This document shows, piece after piece, positions 16,104 to 49,100 of a stretch of DNA of 64,000 bases. This stretch comes from Escherichia coli (GTDB taxonomy: Bacteria; Pseudomonadota; Gammaproteobacteria; Enterobacterales; Enterobacteriaceae): assembly GCF_003334305.1 (NCBI RefSeq), contig NZ_QOWS01000009.1; one strand, 5' to 3'. The translations under genes and the position numbers were made by a program. Below the pieces are notes generated by a model, which worked only from the letters and a program-made list of their open reading frames with translations, ran no database searches and was not told the origin of the DNA. Position 1 is the first letter of the stretch. Every line of letters begins with the position of its first letter.

Positions 16104-16125
16104 GCCGGATGGCATACCATCCGGC
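16104..16125. repeat. REP-like hairpin between convergent mutM and coaD
   Basis: GCCGGATGGCATACCATCCGGC palindrome. Confidence 0.55.
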
Positions 16126-40677: not shown

Positions 40678-41499
40678 ATGTCGTGTGAAGAACTGGAAAT
40701 TGTCTGGAACAATATTAAAGCCGAAGCCAGAACGCTGGCGGACTGTGAGCCAATGCTGGCCAGTTTTTACCACGCGACGCTACTCAAGCACGAAAACCTT
40801 GGTAGTGCACTGAGCTACATGCTGGCGAACAAGCTGTCATCGCCAATTATGCCTGCTATTGCTATCCGTGAAGTGGTGGAAGAAGCCTACGCCGCTGACC
40901 CGGAAATGATCGCCTCTGCGGCCTGTGATATTCAGGCGGTGCGTACCCGCGACCCGGCAGTCGATAAATACTCAACCCCGTTGTTATACCTGAAGGGTTT
41001 TCATGCCTTGCAGGCCTATCGCATCGGTCACTGGTTGTGGAATCAGGGGCGTCGCGCATTGGCAATCTTTCTGCAAAACCAGGTTTCTGTGACGTTCCAG
41101 GTCGATATTCACCCGGCAGCAAAAATTGGCCGTGGCATTATGCTCGACCACGCCACGGGCATCGTTGTGGGTGAAACGGCGGTAATTGAAAACGACGTAT
41201 CGATTCTGCAATCTGTGACGCTTGGCGGTACGGGTAAATCTGGTGGTGACCGTCACCCGAAAATTCGTGAAGGTGTGATGATTGGCGCGGGCGCGAAAAT
41301 CCTCGGCAATATTGAAGTTGGTCGCGGCGCGAAGATTGGCGCAGGTTCCGTGGTGCTGCAACCGGTGCCGCCGCATACAACCGCCGCTGGCGTTCCGGCT
41401 CGTATTGTCGGTAAACCAGACAGCGATAAGCCATCAATGGATATGGACCAGCATTTCAACGGTATTAACCATACATTTGAGTATGGGGATGGGATCTAA
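40678..41499 (+). CDS. cysE: serine O-acetyltransferase
   Basis: 273-aa ORF with left-handed beta-helix hexapeptide repeats. Confidence 0.96.
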   Translation: MSCEELEIVWNNIKAEARTLADCEPMLASFYHATLLKHENLGSALSYMLANKLSSPIMPAIAIREVVEEAYAADPEMIASAACDIQAVRTRDPAVDKYSTPLLYLKGFHALQAYRIGHWLWNQGRRALAIFLQNQVSVTFQVDIHPAAKIGRGIMLDHATGIVVGETAVIENDVSILQSVTLGGTGKSGGDRHPKIREGVMIGAGAKILGNIEVGRGAKIGAGSVVLQPVPPHTTAAGVPARIVGKPDSDKPSMDMDQHFNGINHTFEYGDGI

Positions 41500-41514
41500 T
41501 GTCCTGTGATCGTG

Positions 41515-41549
41515 CCGGATGCGATGTAATCATCTATCCGGCATACAGT
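41515..41549. repeat. REP-like palindromic element between cysE and trmL
   Basis: GCCGGATGCG...CCGGCATACAG resembles the REP consensus. Confidence 0.6.
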
Positions 41550-41551
41550 AA

Positions 41552-42025
41552 CTAATCTCTCAACAACGCTCCCGGATATCCCAGCTGCCGCCAGGCTTCA
41601 TACACCACAACTGACACCGCATTGGACAGGTTCATGCTGCGGCTGTCCGGCACCATCGGAATGCGAATTTTTTGTTCAGCGGGCAGGGCATCAAGAATGC
41701 TCGCTGGCAGGCCGCGTGTTTCCGGGCCGAACATCAGATAATCGCCATCCTGATAGTTTACGGCGCTGTGAGCAGGCGTACCTTTCGTGGTGAGGGCAAA
41801 CAGGCGCTGGGGATTTTCTGCTTCGAGGAATGCGCGAAAGTCATGATGACGCGTAACGGCGGTAAACTCGTGATAGTCCAGCCCCGCGCGGCGCAGGCGC
41901 TTATCGTCCCAGGCAAATCCCATCGGTTCGATGATATGCAGACGAAAGCCGGTATTAGCGCAAAGACGGATGATATTGCCAGTATTTGGCGGAATTTCTG
42001 GTTCGTAAAGTACGATGTTTAGCAT
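41552..42025 (-). CDS. trmL: tRNA (cytidine/uridine-2'-O)-methyltransferase TrmL
   Basis: 157-aa SpoU/TrmH-family ORF. Confidence 0.95.
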
Positions 42026-42029
42026 ACTG

Positions 42030-42205
42030 CCCCCTTAGTGCGGGGGCAGGATAGCAGAAAATTGGTGAGCAGTGCGGCCTTTTCCCCTCACCCCGGAGGG
42101 GCGAGGGAGAAAAAAAGAGTGCGGTGTCGTTTCAGAGTGAGGGAGTACATACAGCGCCGAACGGTCCCCACTCCCTGAGGGAGAGGGTTAGGGTGAGGGG
42201 GCTCA
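42030..42205. repeat. GC-rich imperfect palindromic intergenic repeats (two units)
   Basis: CCCCTCACCCCGGAGGGGCGAGGGAG and CCCCACTCCCTGAGGGAGAGGGTTAGGGTGAGGGGG; a related copy lies at 54945-55016. Confidence 0.5.
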
Positions 42206-42210
42206 AACGA

Positions 42211-43401
42211 CTATGCCGCATTCCCTTTCGCCATCGGAGCCAGTGCCGTAGGCAACTCTTTACCCAGCCCCTGCACCAGCGAATCTTGCGTAATTTCACT
42301 GATCGATTTCGCGCCAGTCAGCGTCATTGCCACTTTCATCTCTTTCTCGATCAGATTTAGCAGGTTAGCTACACCCGCCTGGCCCGCTGTTGCCAGCGCA
42401 TACAGGAAAGCACGACCCAGAAGTACGGTGTCGGCACCGAGCGCAATCATACGCACGACATCAAGCCCGTTACGAATTCCGCTATCCGCCAGAATGGCGA
42501 TATCACCTTTCACCGCATCTGCAATAGCGGGCAACGCACGAGCGGAAGAGAGTACACCGTCCAGCTGGCGGCCACCGTGGTTAGAAACCACAATTCCATC
42601 AGCACCAAAACGTACTGCATCGCGCGCATCTTCCGGATCGAGGATCCCTTTGATCACCATCGGGCCATCCCAGAAATCGCGGATCCACTCAAGGTCTTTC
42701 CATGAGATGGACGGATCGAAGTTATTCCCCAGCCAGCCGATGTAATCTTCCAGTCCGGTCGGTTTGCCGAGATAAGCTGAGATATTACCTAAATCATGTG
42801 GACGACCGTTCAGGCCCACATCCCACGCCCATTGCGGATGCGTCACCGCCTGCAAGTAGCGGCGCATTGCCGCATTTGGGCCGCTCATACCTGAATGCGC
42901 ATCACGGTAGCGTGCGCCCGGTGTCGGCATATCCACGGTGAAAACCAGCGTCGAACAACCCGCTGCTTTTGCTCGCTCCAGCGCGTTACGCATAAAGCCG
43001 CGATCGCGCAGTACATAAAGCTGGAACCACATTGGGCGCTTGATGGCTGGCGCGACTTCTTCAATCGGGCAAACGGAAACCGTCGAGAGAGTAAACGGAA
43101 TGCCATGCGCGTCCGCCGCTTTGGCTGCCTGAACTTCGCCACGACGCGCATACATGCCACACAAACCCACCGGTGCCAGTGCTACCGGCATCGACAATTT
43201 CTCATTAAACAGCGTCGTTTCCAGGCTTAAGTCAGACATGTTTTTCAGAATACGCTGGCGCAGTGCCACTTCTGACAAATCTTCCACGTTGCGGCGCAGC
43301 GTGTATTCAGAATATGCACCACCATCCATATAGTGGAACAGGAACGGCGGCAGAATGCGTTGCGCTGCGGCGCGATAATCGCTGGCTGCGGAAATAATCA
43401 T
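42211..43401 (-). CDS. lldD: L-lactate dehydrogenase (FMN-dependent)
   Basis: 396-aa ORF. Confidence 0.96.
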
Positions 43402-44174
43402 GCGTTTTTCTCCCTCGAATGCTCATAATGCTCACCGGGCAGGCGGGTAATCCGTGCGTGGCGAGCCTGATCTTCATCGAATCGTTTCATGGTGGTGTGA
43501 ACAAAACTAAGGTGCGCCATCATTGCTTTACGCGCCCCGTCGGCATCACCAGCAAAAATGGCGTCAATGACAGCCTGATGTTGTTCGGTCAGTTGTGAAA
43601 AAACCGGTGGCACCAGATACATCCGCTGACGGCTATGCTTCACTGAGGATTGCAGGACATCGAAGAAACCGCGCATGGTTTGCAGCAGCACGATGTTATG
43701 TGAGGCTTCGGCAATCGCCAGATGAAAACGAACGTCCGCTTGTGAGGCGATATCCGGGTCTTCACTTAGCGTTGCTTCAAAGCAAAGCTGAATCTTTTCT
43801 TTGTCGCCAGGTGTGGCGCGCATTGCCGCATGCCATGCGGTGCTGGCTTCAATGGCGTAGCGGGCTTCCAGAATATCGAAACTGTAATCCGGATCATCGG
43901 CCATCAGCGTTTTTAGCGGCTGGACGATGTTTTGCTCCGACCATGTGTCATGACGCCAGCGAATAAACGTCCCGCCGCCGCGTCGACTGAGCAGCACGCC
44001 TTCGCTCACCAGTTTTGCCAGCGCCTCGCGTAGTGAATTACGTGATACGCCGAGTTGCATCGCCAGTTGGCGCTCAGCGGGCAACTTCATGCCCGCTTCC
44101 AGGTTTTTTTCATCAATCAGCGCCCGCACACGATCGGCAACCTCGTCTGACAGGCGTCTGGGTAAAACAATCAT
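43398..44174 (-). CDS. lldR: GntR-family regulator LldR
   Basis: ORF 43398-44189; start trimmed to [20 protein letters not shown] (258 aa); overlaps lldD start. Confidence 0.93.
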
Positions 44175-45829
44175 TAAGGAATCATCCACGTTAAGACATA
44201 AGCCTGAAGCGTGGTGATCACGCCCACCATACAGGTGAAGATCAGGCTGTGTTTGACAGTAAAGCGGAACAAATCAGACTCTTTGCCCACCAGGCCTACC
44301 GCCGCACAGGCGATAGCGATAGATTGCGGGGAGATCATCTTACCGGTGACGCCACCGGTGGTATTGGCGGCAACCAGCAACAGATCAGAGACGCCAATTT
44401 GTTGTGCTGCGGTGGCTTGCAGCGCGGCGAACAGGGCGTTAGATGAGGTATCCGACCCGGTCAGGAATACCCCCAGCCAGCCGAGGAACGGCGAGAAGAA
44501 GGTGAATGCATGACCGGTGTGCGCCAGTGCCAGTGCCAGTGTTGATGACAGTCCGGAATAGTTCGAGATAAAGGCGAACGCCAGCACCATGCCGATGGAG
44601 TAGATGGGTAGAGCCAGTTCTTTCAGCGTGCTGCCGAAGGTGCTGATAGCGTCAGACGGTTTCATCTTCAGCCAGACAATCGAGAGCAGTGCAGCAAACA
44701 GAATGGCGGTGCCGGTGGCAGAGAACCAGTCAAACTTAAACACGGCGGCATAGGCTGTAGCCTCGCTGACCACTGGTGGCATACGGGCAACCAGTTTATC
44801 GAGGTACGGCACCGGAATGTTGATCACCCACTCATACAGCGCACCACCCGATGCGAACAGGGCTTTAAACGGCGGGATACTCCACAGTGTTACGGTAGCT
44901 GTCAGGAACAGGAACGGTGTCCAGGCACGTAACACCTGACCCGCAGTGTAACCGGTGTGGGCCAGCGTCATATCAACCTGTGACGCCCCCAAATCACCAA
45001 AACGGAATACGCGCACTGGCTGCCAGCGTTTGAGGAACAGCGTCAGGCAGAGCAGTGATACCAGCGAAGAGATAATGTCCGGCAGCTCCGGCCCAATGAA
45101 GTTAGAGCTAAGGTACTGAGCGATGGCAAACGAGCCGCCCGCAACCACGACCGCAGGCCACGTCTCCTTGATACCGCGCCAGCCGTCCATAATCGCCATG
45201 ATCCAGAACAGCACGATAATGGTCATAAACGGTAGCTGCCGCCCCACCATCTGGCCAATCTCAAAGCTGTCGATGCCTGTTACTTGTCCGGCAACCAGGA
45301 TTGGAATGCCCATCGCGCCAAATGCCACTGGCGCGGTGTTAACAATCAGGCACAGTCCGGCGGCGTACAGCGGTTTAAAACCCAGGCCGACCAGCAATGC
45401 GGCGGTAATTGCTACCGGTGCGCCAAAGCCTGCGGCTCCTTCAAGGAACGCGCCGAAACAGAAACCGACGATCAGCATTTGCAGACGCTGGTCAGGGGTT
45501 ATCGAAAGAATAGACGAGCGAATGATGTCAAACTGCCCGGTTTTCACCGAGATCTTATAGACGAACACCGCTGCAATAATGATCCACGCGATGGGCCACA
45601 ACCCGTAGAAGAAACCATAAACCACCGAGGCCAGCGCGTTAGCGACCGGCATTTTATAGAACAGCAAAGCCACGGCAAGGGCGATTGCCACCGTCCACGA
45701 GGCGGCGACGTATCCTTTCAGTTTGAGCTTAATCAGCGCAAAGAAGAAAAACAGGATGGGAAGCGATGCTATCAGACTGGAAAGCCAGATATTCCCGGCG
45801 GGATCGTAGTTTTGTTGCCAGAGATTCAT
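44174..45829 (-). CDS. lldP: L-lactate permease
   Basis: ORF 44174-45856; start trimmed to [15 protein letters not shown] (551 aa). Confidence 0.93.
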
Positions 45830-46026
45830 TGCAGGTCTCCTGGAGTCCACGCACATCGTGTAATGAGTCTGTTGCTCATCTCCTTGTCACACGTTGTGTA
45901 AAAGTGGCACTGCCAATTGTGTTGTGTAGGGATAATGACAATGAATGGTTAACTAAATGTTATGTATTGGCAATATTGATGTGAGTTTTAATTGGGGAAT
46001 TGTGAACCAGAGGTCAGATAAGCGAA

Positions 46027-46043
46027 GAATTGGTAGGGCCAAT
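46027..46043. promoter_or_regulatory. candidate LldR operator palindrome upstream of lldP
   Basis: AATTGG-TAGGG-CCAATT perfect inverted repeat about 200 bp upstream of lldP start. Confidence 0.45.
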
Positions 46044-46132
46044 TCTTGTGGGGGGAGATGTCTGGTAAAGAAAAAGGGCAATCCTCATCAGAGAATTGCC
46101 CTTAGATTGTTGACCCGGAGCGCCTTATCTTG

Positions 46133-46157
46133 CCTGATGCGCGTAACGCATCAGGCA
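46133..46157. repeat. REP-like palindrome / terminator downstream of adhesin gene
   Basis: GCCTGATGCG-CGTAA-CGCATCAGGC perfect palindrome about 40 nt after adhesin stop. Confidence 0.6.
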
Positions 46158-46197
46158 ATTTGGCGTTTGCCCTTAGTCACACTAACTTAATGGATCA

Positions 46198-49100
46198 TTA
46201 CCACTGAATACCGGCACCGAGTGCGGCGGAGTATTCACCCTGGCTATTGGTACTACCTTGTAATTTGTAGACCCAACGACCATTGGCGCTCACCATCGAT
46301 ACACCTAAAGCAACTGCCGATTCACCGTTGTAAGTACCGCCACCAATAGAAGCCATGCTGGCACCCGGTGTATAAGCCTGCGGCAGACCGGTCATTGCCA
46401 TTGCAGAAGCGATACCACCGCTCAACTTGCTTTCAGTTTTAGACAGTTTGTTATCCATTTCAACCATTCGCTGATCGGTGTATTGCTTCGTTTCCTGCAC
46501 GCTTTGCTTCAACTGCGCGTAATTCACCGCGTCGTTGTTGTTGACGCCAGCGGAGACGTTGCTGATACGAGTCGTACCGCCGTTGCCGCCACCGAGGGTG
46601 ATATTGCTATAGTCGATAGAACCATCAGCTTTGGTGTCGTAACGCACACCGCCAGCTTCGGAAGACTTCAACTGTGCCACGTTAACAGCATCGGTGTCGT
46701 TTTTACCTGCGGCTACGTTGGTGATACGACGTTGATTAGTAGATGAGCCTACAGAGATCGTATTTTCTTCGGTTGCCACAGACCCTGTACCCAGTGCGAC
46801 GCTGTTATCCGCGGCAGCAATGGAGCCAGAACCAATCGCGACGCTATCTTTACCCTGCGCGCTGGCATCTACACCATCGGTATTGGTCTTGAAGTACTTG
46901 GTGCTACCGGTGGTGACGATATCGCCAATACCGTTTTCGATATTGGTGACGCGTGAATCAAGATTCGTTACCCGATTATCCAGGTTAGTAATGCTCTGGG
47001 TATTCTGGGAAACCTGCGCATCCGTTACTTTCAACTGACCCACGTTGACCGCATCGGTATCAGCCGAACCTGCTGCGACGTTAGTGATCTGACGTTGACC
47101 ATCCGCACTACCGACTGAGAATTCACCGACAGAGTTCTGCGGTGCGTCCATGTTGTAGGCGGTATAATTGGTTTGAGCGCCACGAGTGGTCGTAGAACCA
47201 TTACCTATCGCAATACTGTTGACATGAATGACTTGCGCATTGCTACCAATGGCAATGCCGTTAAGTGCATTCGCGTCCACGTAGGCACCATAACCGATAC
47301 CAATACCTTTATCGCCATTCACGATGGTTTTCGCACCCATTGCCAGCGAGTCAGTTCCCACTGCCAGTGAATCTTCTTCCGTTGAATTAGCGTGGAAGTA
47401 TTTAGTCGGCGTGGTTGCGACCGCACCAATCGCATTCTGCAATTGACGAACCGTAACGGCGTCATGGGCTTCGGAACCATCGGCTACGTTGATGATTTGA
47501 CGATATTTACCGTCATCACCGATAGACAATGCACCGAGCAGTTCGCCATCCGTGGTGTCGTAACCAATAACAACGCCATTTTCCGTTATGCTGGTGTCAC
47601 GGGAGCCTTTGGCAATCACTCGGCTGGAAACAGAGCTGCTACCCAGGGCGATACCCGTATCAACGTCGCTGTAGCTGCCCTGACCAATAGCTACGCTGCT
47701 ATCGCCTTTGGCGACAGAGTTATAACCTATAGCTGTAGCGCCAACACCCTGTGCGCTGGCGTCGTTGAACGCTAAGCCGTCGTCGTTAGTACGCACATAG
47801 TTAATACCCGCACCGTTTTCTTGGATATAGGTTGCGTCGGTGTTACCAGCGAGCTGATTGATAATTTGGGTGTTCTGCTCAATCATCATATTCGTCGCAT
47901 TCAACTGAGAACCGTTCACTGCATCGGTACTGTCCTCACTAATACTGCCATTAGCGACATTAGTGATGATGCTGGCTTTACCGTCATGGCTGGCATTGTA
48001 GGCTCCAGCACCGCCATTGGCAGTCTCATCCCACAGCAAGGCGTTATCATCAAGCGCATCCAGGGCGTCACCGACGTTGTTGTACTCGGCGTTCGCAATG
48101 GTGTAAGTCGGTGCGGTGATGGTGCCGTCAGCGTTGACTTCTGCGTCACCACCCAGCGCATCAGCGATGTACTTATTGGTGGTATAGAGTTGTGAGCCGT
48201 TAATCGCGTCGCTGCTGGCAGCAGAGATTGCACCGTTAGCGACGTTAGTGATTACACTGGCAGTTTTATCTTTTCCGTGAGCGGCGCTAAATGCACCATT
48301 TTCACCGGCGTCCGCATCCCAGAGCAGAGCGTCGTCAAGAGTGGTATCGATAGCATTCAGGGCATCACCGACATTATCGTAATCAGCATTAGCAATGGTG
48401 TACGTCGGCGCAGTGATGGTGCCGTCTGCATTGACTTCGGCACCACCCCCCAGCGCATCAACAACATAACTGCTCACGCCGTGGAGTTGTGAGCCGTTTA
48501 CTGCGTCAGAACTGGAGTCTGAAATTTCACCATCTGCGACATCAGTGATCACGCTTGCGTCACCATTAGTACCGTGTTTGGCACTGAATTTACCTGCGGT
48601 GGCATCCCAAAGCAGAGCATCGCCGAGAGACGTGCTAAATGAGGAGTTAATCGCAGCCAGTGCATCGCCGACGTTATAATAATTTGTTTCACCGATTTTG
48701 TAGGTTGGACCGGTAAACACACCGTCAGTATTCACAGAAGCATTGCCGCCGAAGTAGGTGGCGATATTGCTGCTTAAGTCATAAAGCTGGCTACCGTTAA
48801 TGGCATCGGAACTGGTTGCAGTGACTGTGCCGTCCAGGATATTGGTGATTTTGCTGGCGGTATTGTTGCCATGAGCTGCAGTGAAGACACCATTGTCCTT
48901 ATCCCATTTCAGCGCATCCTCACCAAGATTAGTCACCGTCTCAGTCAGATTAGAGATGTTGGTGGTGTTAGTGGCGATATTGGTGGTATTCGTCGCCACG
49001 GCATCGTTGGTGGTTTTCAACTGAGAGCCGTTAACGGCATCGGTGCTGCCAGTCGTCAGGTCGCCATCTTTAACGTTGGTGATTTTGCTGGTGGTCTCGG

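Follow-up and report, generated by a model that had tools for sequence, protein, structure and literature searches.

What are the GC-rich palindromic repeats that lie between trmL and lldD, and recur between mtlA and mtlD, in a 64,000-nt stretch of Escherichia coli DNA (contig NZ_QOWS01000009.1; the whole stretch is called the window hereafter), and do they have a function there? The window is a piece of E. coli chromosome that carries cysE-trmL-lldDRP and mtlDA, in reversed orientation compared with K-12. A first-pass annotation of the window had described the units as a family with common arms, distinct from the classic REP palindromes, had suggested that they could stabilise mRNA or terminate transcription inside operons, and had named Box C among the repeat families for comparison. 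Judged by their sequence, the units are worn copies of BoxC, a dispersed intergenic repeat family that is already known, so that the suggested comparison pointed to the correct family. With a probability of roughly 75%, we regard them as decaying BoxC copies, that is structured repeats at gene 3' ends with no dedicated regulatory job at these two loci.

Three units of the BoxC family

The family has been described under several names. Holder 2015 (PMC4666352) treated the BoxC palindrome of the early 1990s, Maher's potential intrastrand triplex (PIT) elements and TMECO as one element, and cited the envM sequence as the site of the first BoxC description (for the names, see Bergler 1992 and the Bachellier surveys for BoxC, Hoyne & Maher 2000, 2002 for PIT and Holder 2015 for TMECO). 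The canonical unit consists of a C-block (CCCTCNCCC), a loop of 3-6 nt, G-block 1 (GGGAGAGGG), a 3-nt loop and G-block 2 (GGGTGAGGG), and its type is given by the second loop, which is TTA in type A and CCG in type B. The corresponding TMECO pattern is CCCTCNCCC N3-6 GGGNGAGGG N3 GGGNGAGGG (PMC4666352). According to Table 1 and Table S2 of the same paper, the K-12 interval from lldD to trmL carries TMECO #17 (3781028-3781061, type A) and #18 (3781121-3781156, type B). This pair appears in Kaplan 2016 (PMC5100583) as the putative G-quadruplex motifs HPG1 and HPG2.

Three related units are found in the window, two in the lldD-trmL spacer and one in the mtlA-mtlD spacer (54924-55018, 95 nt), all of them between annotated genes. 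The first spacer, 42026-42210 (185 nt), separates the end of lldD (42211) from the start of trmL (42025); both genes are on the minus strand. The units and their parts are as follows.

42167-42200, plus strand: unit A, a type-A (TTA loop) BoxC copy, orthologue of K-12 TMECO #17 (from sequence, K-12 alignment and Table 1 of PMC4666352)
42167-42175, plus strand: C-block of unit A, CCCACTCCC, with one T>A change, followed by the loop TGA (from sequence)
42179-42187, plus strand: G-block 1 of unit A, followed by the loop TTA (from sequence)
42191-42201, plus strand: G-block 2 of unit A (from sequence)
42084-42107, minus strand: unit B, a shortened type-B copy, orthologue of K-12 TMECO #18 (from alignment and a partial profile match)
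42108-42166, no strand: 59-nt spacer between units B and A (from sequence)
54975-55007, minus strand: mtlA-mtlD unit, full-length and BoxC-like, with 8-nt stems (from sequence, profile match and triplex scanner)
54999-55006, 54987-54994 and 54975-54983, minus strand: C-block, G-block 1 (followed by the loop TTT) and G-block 2 of the mtl unit (from sequence)
54952-54969, plus strand: shortened inverted partner of the mtl unit, with G-blocks 1 and 2 only, GAGAGGG-CTG-GGGTGAGG (from sequence and a weak profile match)

On the plus strand, unit A reads CCCACTCCC-TGA-GGGAGAGGG-TTA-GGGTGAGGGG. What remains of unit B is a plain hairpin on the minus strand, CCCTCGCCCC-TCC-GGGGTGAGGGG with one G.T pair; 12 nt (GGGGAGAGGGCC, comprising G-block 1 and its loop) are missing, and the deletion lies between two CCGGGG direct repeats. 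Both units stand head-to-head, with the C-blocks inward and G-block 2 outermost, and the 59 nt between them carry another partial C-block on the minus strand (CTCCCTCAC). The mtl unit has the order CCCTCTCC-TCAC-GGAGAGGG-TTT-GGGTGAGGG on the minus strand, and its G-rich strand corresponds to the mtl operon mRNA. It faces its partner tail-to-tail across a spacer of 5-6 nt (AAAAG), forming a palindrome with 18-nt arms, in which the inverted repeat 54952-54969 / 54976-54993 is 89% complementary.

The claim that the two spacers hold related units with common arms was borne out by arm matches, shuffles and a profile search. The arm CCCTCACCC matches at 42085-42093 (plus), 42191-42199 (minus) and 54975-54983 (plus), three times against 0.28 expected, and this count was reached in 1 of 100 shuffles of the sequence. 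Three matches, against 0.75 expected, were also found for CCCTCTCC (42180-42187, minus; 54987-54994, plus; 54999-55006, minus). These common 8-9-mers exceed the shuffles and are confined to these sites within the window. Using nhmmer, we built a profile hidden Markov model (HMM) from 21 catalogued K-12 copies, with #17 and #18 excluded, and searched it over the 64 kb. It matched unit A (E=9.5e-7), the mtl unit (E=4.5e-4, model positions 1-35) and, partially, unit B (E=2.4e-3, model positions 1-23), and gave a weak match to the mtl partner (E=0.27); no further profile match was found in the window. Chance similarity among the units is ruled out by the shuffles together with the profile E-values.

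Two tests bear on the family assignment: the K-12 orthologues are catalogued copies, and the similarity extends past these loci. Compared with the K-12 spacer, the lldD-trmL spacer of the window differs by the 12-nt deletion in #18 and two single-nucleotide polymorphisms, the T>A change in the C-block of #17 and one in flanking sequence. In an alignment with the fabI/envM copy (TMECO #9) the short flanks are common too (5' ACGGTCCCC, 3' GGGGAAAAG). A strict TMECO regular expression found no match in the window on either strand, because unit A is mutated, a block of unit B is deleted and the mtl stems have 8 nt; therefore, the family assignment rests on orthology and the profile search. In Holder's terms, the window units are 'TMECO mutated' alleles. 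The list of 23 TMECO copies in PMC4666352 does not contain the mtl unit, and a literature search on the E. coli mtlA-mtlD spacer returned nothing relevant.

Compared with BoxC/PIT/TMECO as described, the window units agree in the blocks, their order, the type A and B loops, the intergenic position, the number of about 20 copies per genome and the combination of one A and one B copy as an inverted pair. They deviate in the C-block substitution of unit A, the loss of G-block 1 in unit B and the 8-nt stems of the mtl unit. With regard to HPG1 and HPG2 (PMC5100583), G-blocks 1 and 2 of unit A are the exact HPG1 sequence (GGGAGAGGGTTAGGGTGAGGG; locus listed at 3781038), whereas unit B (HPG2 in K-12) lacks two G-tracts and the mtl unit fails the G3 rule. 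The distinction from REP palindromes drawn in the first-pass annotation was also correct: the REP consensus (GCCKGATGCG ... TATCMGGCMTAC palindrome) has no match in the units, which have no sequence in common with the REP-type matches at 41514-41546 and 46132-46156 or with the palindrome at ~16104-16125. An Rfam scan of 41000-56000 (E<=1) gave no match at the units and only a weak STnc380 match elsewhere.

Since 1992, BoxC has remained an orphan among repeats: it was found anew three times, as hairpin, triplex and quadruplex, and no protein partner or origin was found. Recognising it in these spacers guards against calling terminators, small RNAs or small open reading frames (ORFs) there, and has little further weight for the window itself.

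The span 42030-42205, originally given for the repeats, does hold the repeat units, but it also includes an unrelated GC-rich hairpin at the trmL ribosome-binding site (CTGCCCCC-GCACTAA-GGGGGCAG, 42024-42052, directly before the trmL ATG). This hairpin covers the trmL start codon, has a likely Shine-Dalgarno sequence in its 3' arm and may gate trmL translation. It is identical in 6/6 aligned lldD-trmL alleles; because it is unchanged in every one of them, including the 47-nt 'empty' allele, it is not part of the repeat. Elsewhere in the window (58966-58983) there is a lone G-run, TGAGGGGGAGGGGGGAGA, with no complementary C-block nearby; the site GGGGGAGGG at 58969, within this stretch, was rejected as a family member, as it is isolated and lacks a C-block or partner. 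The weak Rfam match to the enterobacterial small RNA STnc380 (46003-46112; 34.4 bits versus a gathering score of 60, E=0.0015) adjoins the REP-like palindrome at 46132-46156.

Copy number, alleles and folding in E. coli

Our population set comprised 5426 complete E. coli genomes, which were searched with a 36-nt consensus. All of them (5426/5426) contain the motif, in a total of 92,765 places with a median of 19 and a range of 1-32 per genome; 92,400 of these places are chromosomal and 365 are on plasmids. A genome-wide search had been proposed in the first-pass annotation, according to which a motif that occurs only at these sites and shows no secondary structure would speak against a repeat family; because the motif occurs genome-wide, this is not the case.

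At single loci, the repeats are variable. For the lldD-trmL spacer, we found at least five length alleles.

197 nt: K-12 form; ~1200 genomes, an estimate obtained as 2717 full-coverage genomes minus 1498
185 nt: form of the window, with the 12-nt deletion; 1498/5426 genomes (28%)
~153 nt: form with the centre swapped for a 35-nt palindrome that matches the ends of IS4-family elements; 803 genomes
72 nt: remnant with one G-block; a rarer form in a 60-row sample
47 nt: empty form; ~28% of the 60-row sample

Lying between CCGGGG repeats and present in 28% of the complete genomes, the 12-nt deletion is a clean natural case of block-sized slippage, of exactly the kind that the geometry of the repeat invites. 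In the ~153-nt allele (strain Res13-Lact-PER04-33), the centre of the BoxC pair is the 35-nt palindrome GCTGTCTCTTGATCAGATCTCCTGATCAAGAGACAG, and the full junction is found in 803 genomes. Elsewhere, GCTGTCTCTTGATCAGATCTCCTGATCAAGAGACAG lies inside features annotated as IS4 family transposase, and we take it to resemble the IS50 inside end.

The mtlA-mtlD spacer has 95 nt in the window versus 229 nt in K-12 (locus L002, 696-924). In K-12, a BIME (two REPs) and an extra hairpin, CCCTCTCC-ACAT-GGAGAAGG, stand directly before the BoxC-like unit, and this insert is bounded by repeated CCCTCTCC. The short spacer allele (at least 80% query coverage) was found in 1634/5405 genomes, and the mtl unit itself is nearly fixed, with matches in 5405/5426 genomes. 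This is consistent with the report that TMECO loci in general vary far more than control spacers and frequently decay into plain hairpins (PMC4666352).

At the level of DNA, we scanned for class-II intrastrand triplexes of the purine motif with a program of our own, which asked for 8 or more triads, no more than one mismatch and loops of 1-6 nt. Exactly two places in the window were triplex-capable, namely unit A, with 9 triads and 1 mismatch, and the mtl unit, versus none in 20 shuffles. Going by this triplex capacity, which is read from sequence only, unit A and the mtl unit would both be PIT elements; unit B is not one, because one block is lost. As DNA, the mtl unit and its partner fold with z=-4.6 and -4.8, and unit B folds at -11.7 kcal/mol (z=-3.2). 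For the isolated G-rich strand of a K-12 consensus oligonucleotide, nuclear magnetic resonance (NMR) and circular dichroism showed a stable triplex in vitro, in which a third strand is added to a hairpin (PMC4666352).

The motif beyond E. coli and DUF559 nuclease genes

For the distribution beyond E. coli, one genome per species was scanned with the pattern GGAGAGGGNNNGGGTGAGGG, and ~1 Mb of loci were chosen by the motif alone. The matches listed comprise at least 120 stretches from at least 23 organisms and at least 6 phyla, and most organisms have several copies. Among these matches are Verrucomicrobia, Planctomycetota, Elusimicrobia, Chloroflexi, Deltaproteobacteria, Myxococcota, Alpha- and Gammaproteobacteria, as well as two cultured isolates, Aestuariivirga sp. 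and Pseudomonas bananamidigenes. A C-block stands upstream of the two G-blocks in 130/137 instances listed, though it was outside the search pattern, and its two common variants, CCCTCTCC (87 instances) and CCCTCGCC (39 instances), are the same two as in E. coli. The dominant loops across the listed organisms are CCG and TTA. Within one genome, conservation is limited to the ~36-nt core and a few bases.

The consensus is also present in 487 PLSDB plasmid records, mostly from large Rhizobium, Sinorhizobium and Azospirillum replicons and from enterobacterial plasmids (hosts include Klebsiella, Rhizobium, Sinorhizobium, Azospirillum, Escherichia and Aeromonas); 153 of these records are predicted to be mobilizable and 103 conjugative. 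Holder 2015 (PMC4666352) reported no plasmid association. Carriage by phages was rejected, as only 5/50,697 phage records contain the motif.

Clustering of the ORFs near the motif across organisms yielded two clusters. A response-regulator cluster was dropped as an ordinary abundant family, and the other consists of one recurring small protein that belongs to DUF559 (PF04480), as does E. coli YcjD (117 residues). Among solved structures, the structural-genomics protein 3HRL matches the DUF559 profile (E=9e-38), as does, more weakly, a chain of 3R3P deposited as 'mobile intron protein' (E=3e-4), which presumably is the homing endonuclease I-Bth0305I. At E<=1e-5, there are at least 8000 DUF559 clusters. 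The fold is that of a Vsr-like PD-(D/E)XK nuclease (PMC1189080).

All three DUF559 genes in the motif-chosen loci (3/3) are closely flanked by the motif. Two of these loci have HMM matches on both sides; the Afipia locus has one downstream only, and the N-terminal translation of the ORF points to the upstream copy. In IMG/VR contigs, likewise, the motif stands on both sides of 7/7 close DUF559 relatives and beside none of three distant AT-rich relatives. We also selected 80 metagenome loci by the DUF559 protein alone and inspected 250 nt on each flank: the motif is present upstream in 34/77 and downstream in 32/79 cases, against a background of 4 matches in 169 kb lying >500 nt from the DUF559 gene. 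This amounts to an enrichment of ~90-fold, and we regard the physical link between motif and DUF559 genes as strong. The arrangement is stereotyped, with a C-G1-G2 copy that precedes the ORF by 12-77 nt on its strand and an inverted copy that overlaps the last codons; 20 two-sided loci have this canonical orientation and 2 are reversed. Many of the loci missed by the E. coli-derived profile carry variant tripartite inverted repeats around the gene (e.g. CCCTCCCC/GGGGAGGG/GGGTGGGG).

Fusions were seen in two metagenome-assembled genomes (MAGs). In an Opitutales MAG (L047 3559-5712), a long ORF resembling a type I restriction-modification methyltransferase (NPPF motif) spans the whole BoxC-DUF559-BoxC cassette without a stop, and in a Verrucomicrobiales MAG (L015 39-2183) a similar methyltransferase-like ORF, also with an NPPF motif, reads through a BoxC motif without a stop. 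Database names of DUF559 proteins such as 'adenine-specific DNA-methyltransferase' may stem from such fusions.

In K-12, ycjD is located between fabI and sapF and has its stop codon inside a C-block. The gene is followed by a degenerate duplicate of its last ~45 nt and then, ~170 nt downstream, by the fabI/envM BoxC copy (TMECO #9). A perfect 16-bp palindrome, CACCTCATTCTGACAA ... TTGTCAGAATGAGGTG, precedes K-12 ycjD and overlaps the GTG start (NC_000913.3 1351100-1352300). In our population set, ycjD is present in 3378/5426 genomes; it is described for phylogroups A, B1 and C, where it takes the place of eefRABCD (PMC12817139). For 60 genomes sampled at even spacing, we compared the presence of ycjD with BoxC copy number. 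Every one of the 37 ycjD-positive genomes has 12 or more BoxC places, ycjD is absent from all 14 genomes with at most 6 places, and nine ycjD-negative genomes still have 14-19 places; because of confounding by phylogroup, the comparison is suggestive only. The '12-nt insertion at the 3' end of ycjD' that is described for ST69 and ST182 (PMC12817139) appears to be one BoxC block, as in locus L140. No DUF559 gene was found in the window, and the 59-nt spacer between units A and B has no homology with the ycjD flank beyond the motif blocks. A literature search returned no paper linking DUF559 or ycjD to these repeats, which does not prove that the link is unpublished.

Function at the two loci, possible origin and known systems

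Taken as decaying BoxC copies, the repeats would be non-autonomous, selfish or neutral structured elements that are tolerated at gene 3' ends. Their main consequence would be local indel instability, caused by misalignment or folding of near-identical blocks on single-stranded DNA during replication, and in mRNA the units would form ordinary hairpins only. That they lack a dedicated function is what we infer from several negative results. Neither spacer contains a GC-rich stem with a T-run on either strand or, in a consensus scan, a promoter, and PMC4666352 cites Hoyne & Maher 2002 for the elements having no promoter or terminator activity. The terminator function suggested in the first-pass annotation is thus not supported, either by a hairpin with T-run or, as cited there, by published assays.

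Five points weigh against this interpretation. The Watson-Crick hairpin of unit A is unexceptional (z=-1.1 and -1.4). Dimethyl sulfate footprinting in vivo gave no triplex signal (PMC4666352), and for this reason we can only infer a structural cause of the instability. The near-fixation of the mtl unit would equally fit a selected role in the mtl operon, and the exact core kept across phyla is hard to reconcile with a purely neutral element. Finally, the higher variability of these loci could just reflect mobility or weak constraint in spacers.

The main rival is a role at the level of RNA, and in particular a possible stabiliser role in the mtl operon. According to this explanation, the hairpins would block 3'-5' exonucleases or cause pausing or attenuation, and would set the expression of the upstream versus the downstream gene; REP in malEFG is the model for such control of relative expression. 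The folding check proposed in the first-pass annotation agrees with this, since both spacers are predicted to fold better than shuffles as RNA: the mtl spacer at -40.2 kcal/mol (z=-4.0, with 0/200 shuffles as good) and the lldD-trmL spacer at -68.7 kcal/mol (z=-2.65). An mRNA-stabilising role is therefore conceivable for the mtl spacer. It is also in line with the mtl unit being found in 5405/5426 genomes and with the table in PMC5100583, in which most K-12 copies lie at gene 3' ends, in spacers of the tandem or convergent type. However, no stem is followed by a T-run, the published assays as related in PMC4666352 gave neither terminator nor promoter activity nor an effect on RNA polymerase, most or all of the lldD-trmL element is missing from ~35% of E. 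coli genomes, where nothing seems to have replaced it, and the K-12 copies have no strand bias. On balance, we consider an RNA-level role unlikely.

Kaplan 2016 (PMC5100583) proposed that these motifs act as a regulatory switch between G-quadruplex, hairpin and duplex. Unit A is indeed the sole canonical G-quadruplex motif in the window (GGGAGAGGGTTAGGGTGAGGGGG at 42179-42201; G3+ N1-7, four tracts), and circular dichroism indicated K+-dependent quadruplex formation of the HPG2 oligonucleotide (PMC5100583). Nevertheless, NMR of the full oligonucleotide gave a triplex and not a quadruplex (PMC4666352). The four-tract rule excludes unit B, with two G-tracts on its G-rich strand, and the mtl unit, in which the first tract is GG instead of GGG, so that two of the three units are unable to form a three-tetrad quadruplex because their G-tracts are too few or too short. 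Moreover, unit A has its G-rich strand antisense to the lldD and trmL mRNAs on either side. We consider such a switch quite improbable here. The least probable explanation, and in our view a very remote one, is the speculation of Holder et al. (PMC4666352) that selection keeps the repeats as generators of adaptive variation through raised local mutability: TMECO loci do vary more than control loci (PMC4666352) and the lldD-trmL spacer has many alleles, but what varies is the repeat itself, which is lost or decays in spacers without known function, second-order selection of this kind is weak, and the association with nuclease genes fits a selfish-element origin better.

The DUF559 cassettes offer a possible source of the family. 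We give an even chance to the idea that a small, widespread cassette encoding a DUF559 nuclease has BoxC/TMECO as its terminal inverted repeats or as its homing target, with the window copies as gene-less relics or empty sites. Such a cassette would consist of C-block, G1 and G2 (plus strand), 12-77 nt, the DUF559 ORF and G2', G1' and C' (minus strand), with the stop in or beside G2'. Minus the gene, this geometry is seen in four K-12 tail-to-tail BoxC pairs and in the mtl unit; the lldD-trmL pair is head-to-head instead. In this view, the nuclease would act on the motif. The recurrent C-block variant CCCTCGCCC differs from CCCTCTCCC by forming a G.T or G.A mispair with the G-blocks, and a Vsr-like enzyme might recognise this mispair. 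If the association holds, it would supply an origin for the BoxC repeats and the first biological context for a very large uncharacterised nuclease family, and the upkeep of the repeats would become a bench question on one E. coli protein of 117 residues. A direct test of the link would be worthwhile, since both an origin for BoxC and a substrate for DUF559 would follow from it.

In this context, three known systems can be compared. Like miniature inverted-repeat transposable elements, the tail-to-tail BoxC pairs (four in K-12, and the mtl unit) look like a cassette with the gene removed; unlike these, no target-site duplication or transposase has been identified for BoxC, and the lldD-trmL pair is head-to-head. 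Free-standing genes of Vsr-like homing endonucleases (3R3P) share with DUF559 the location of the gene inside a palindromic site that is also found empty elsewhere in the genome; in contrast to them, DUF559 genes have no intron or intein context, and cleavage of BoxC by DUF559 is only putative. The third system is REP/BIME with its RAYT protein (REPINs). Both REP and BoxC are short GC-rich intergenic palindromes at gene 3' ends, often in inverted doublets, and as REP flanks a single-copy RAYT gene, the BoxC-like motif flanks DUF559 genes. The two have no sequence similarity, and RAYT is a Y1 (HUH) transposase whereas DUF559 has a PD-(D/E)XK (Vsr-like) fold; furthermore, the REP unit is a simple hairpin with a GTAG head and the BoxC unit is tripartite, with a hairpin and a mirror block. 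If the cassette idea holds, DUF559 would be to BoxC what RAYT is to REP/REPIN.

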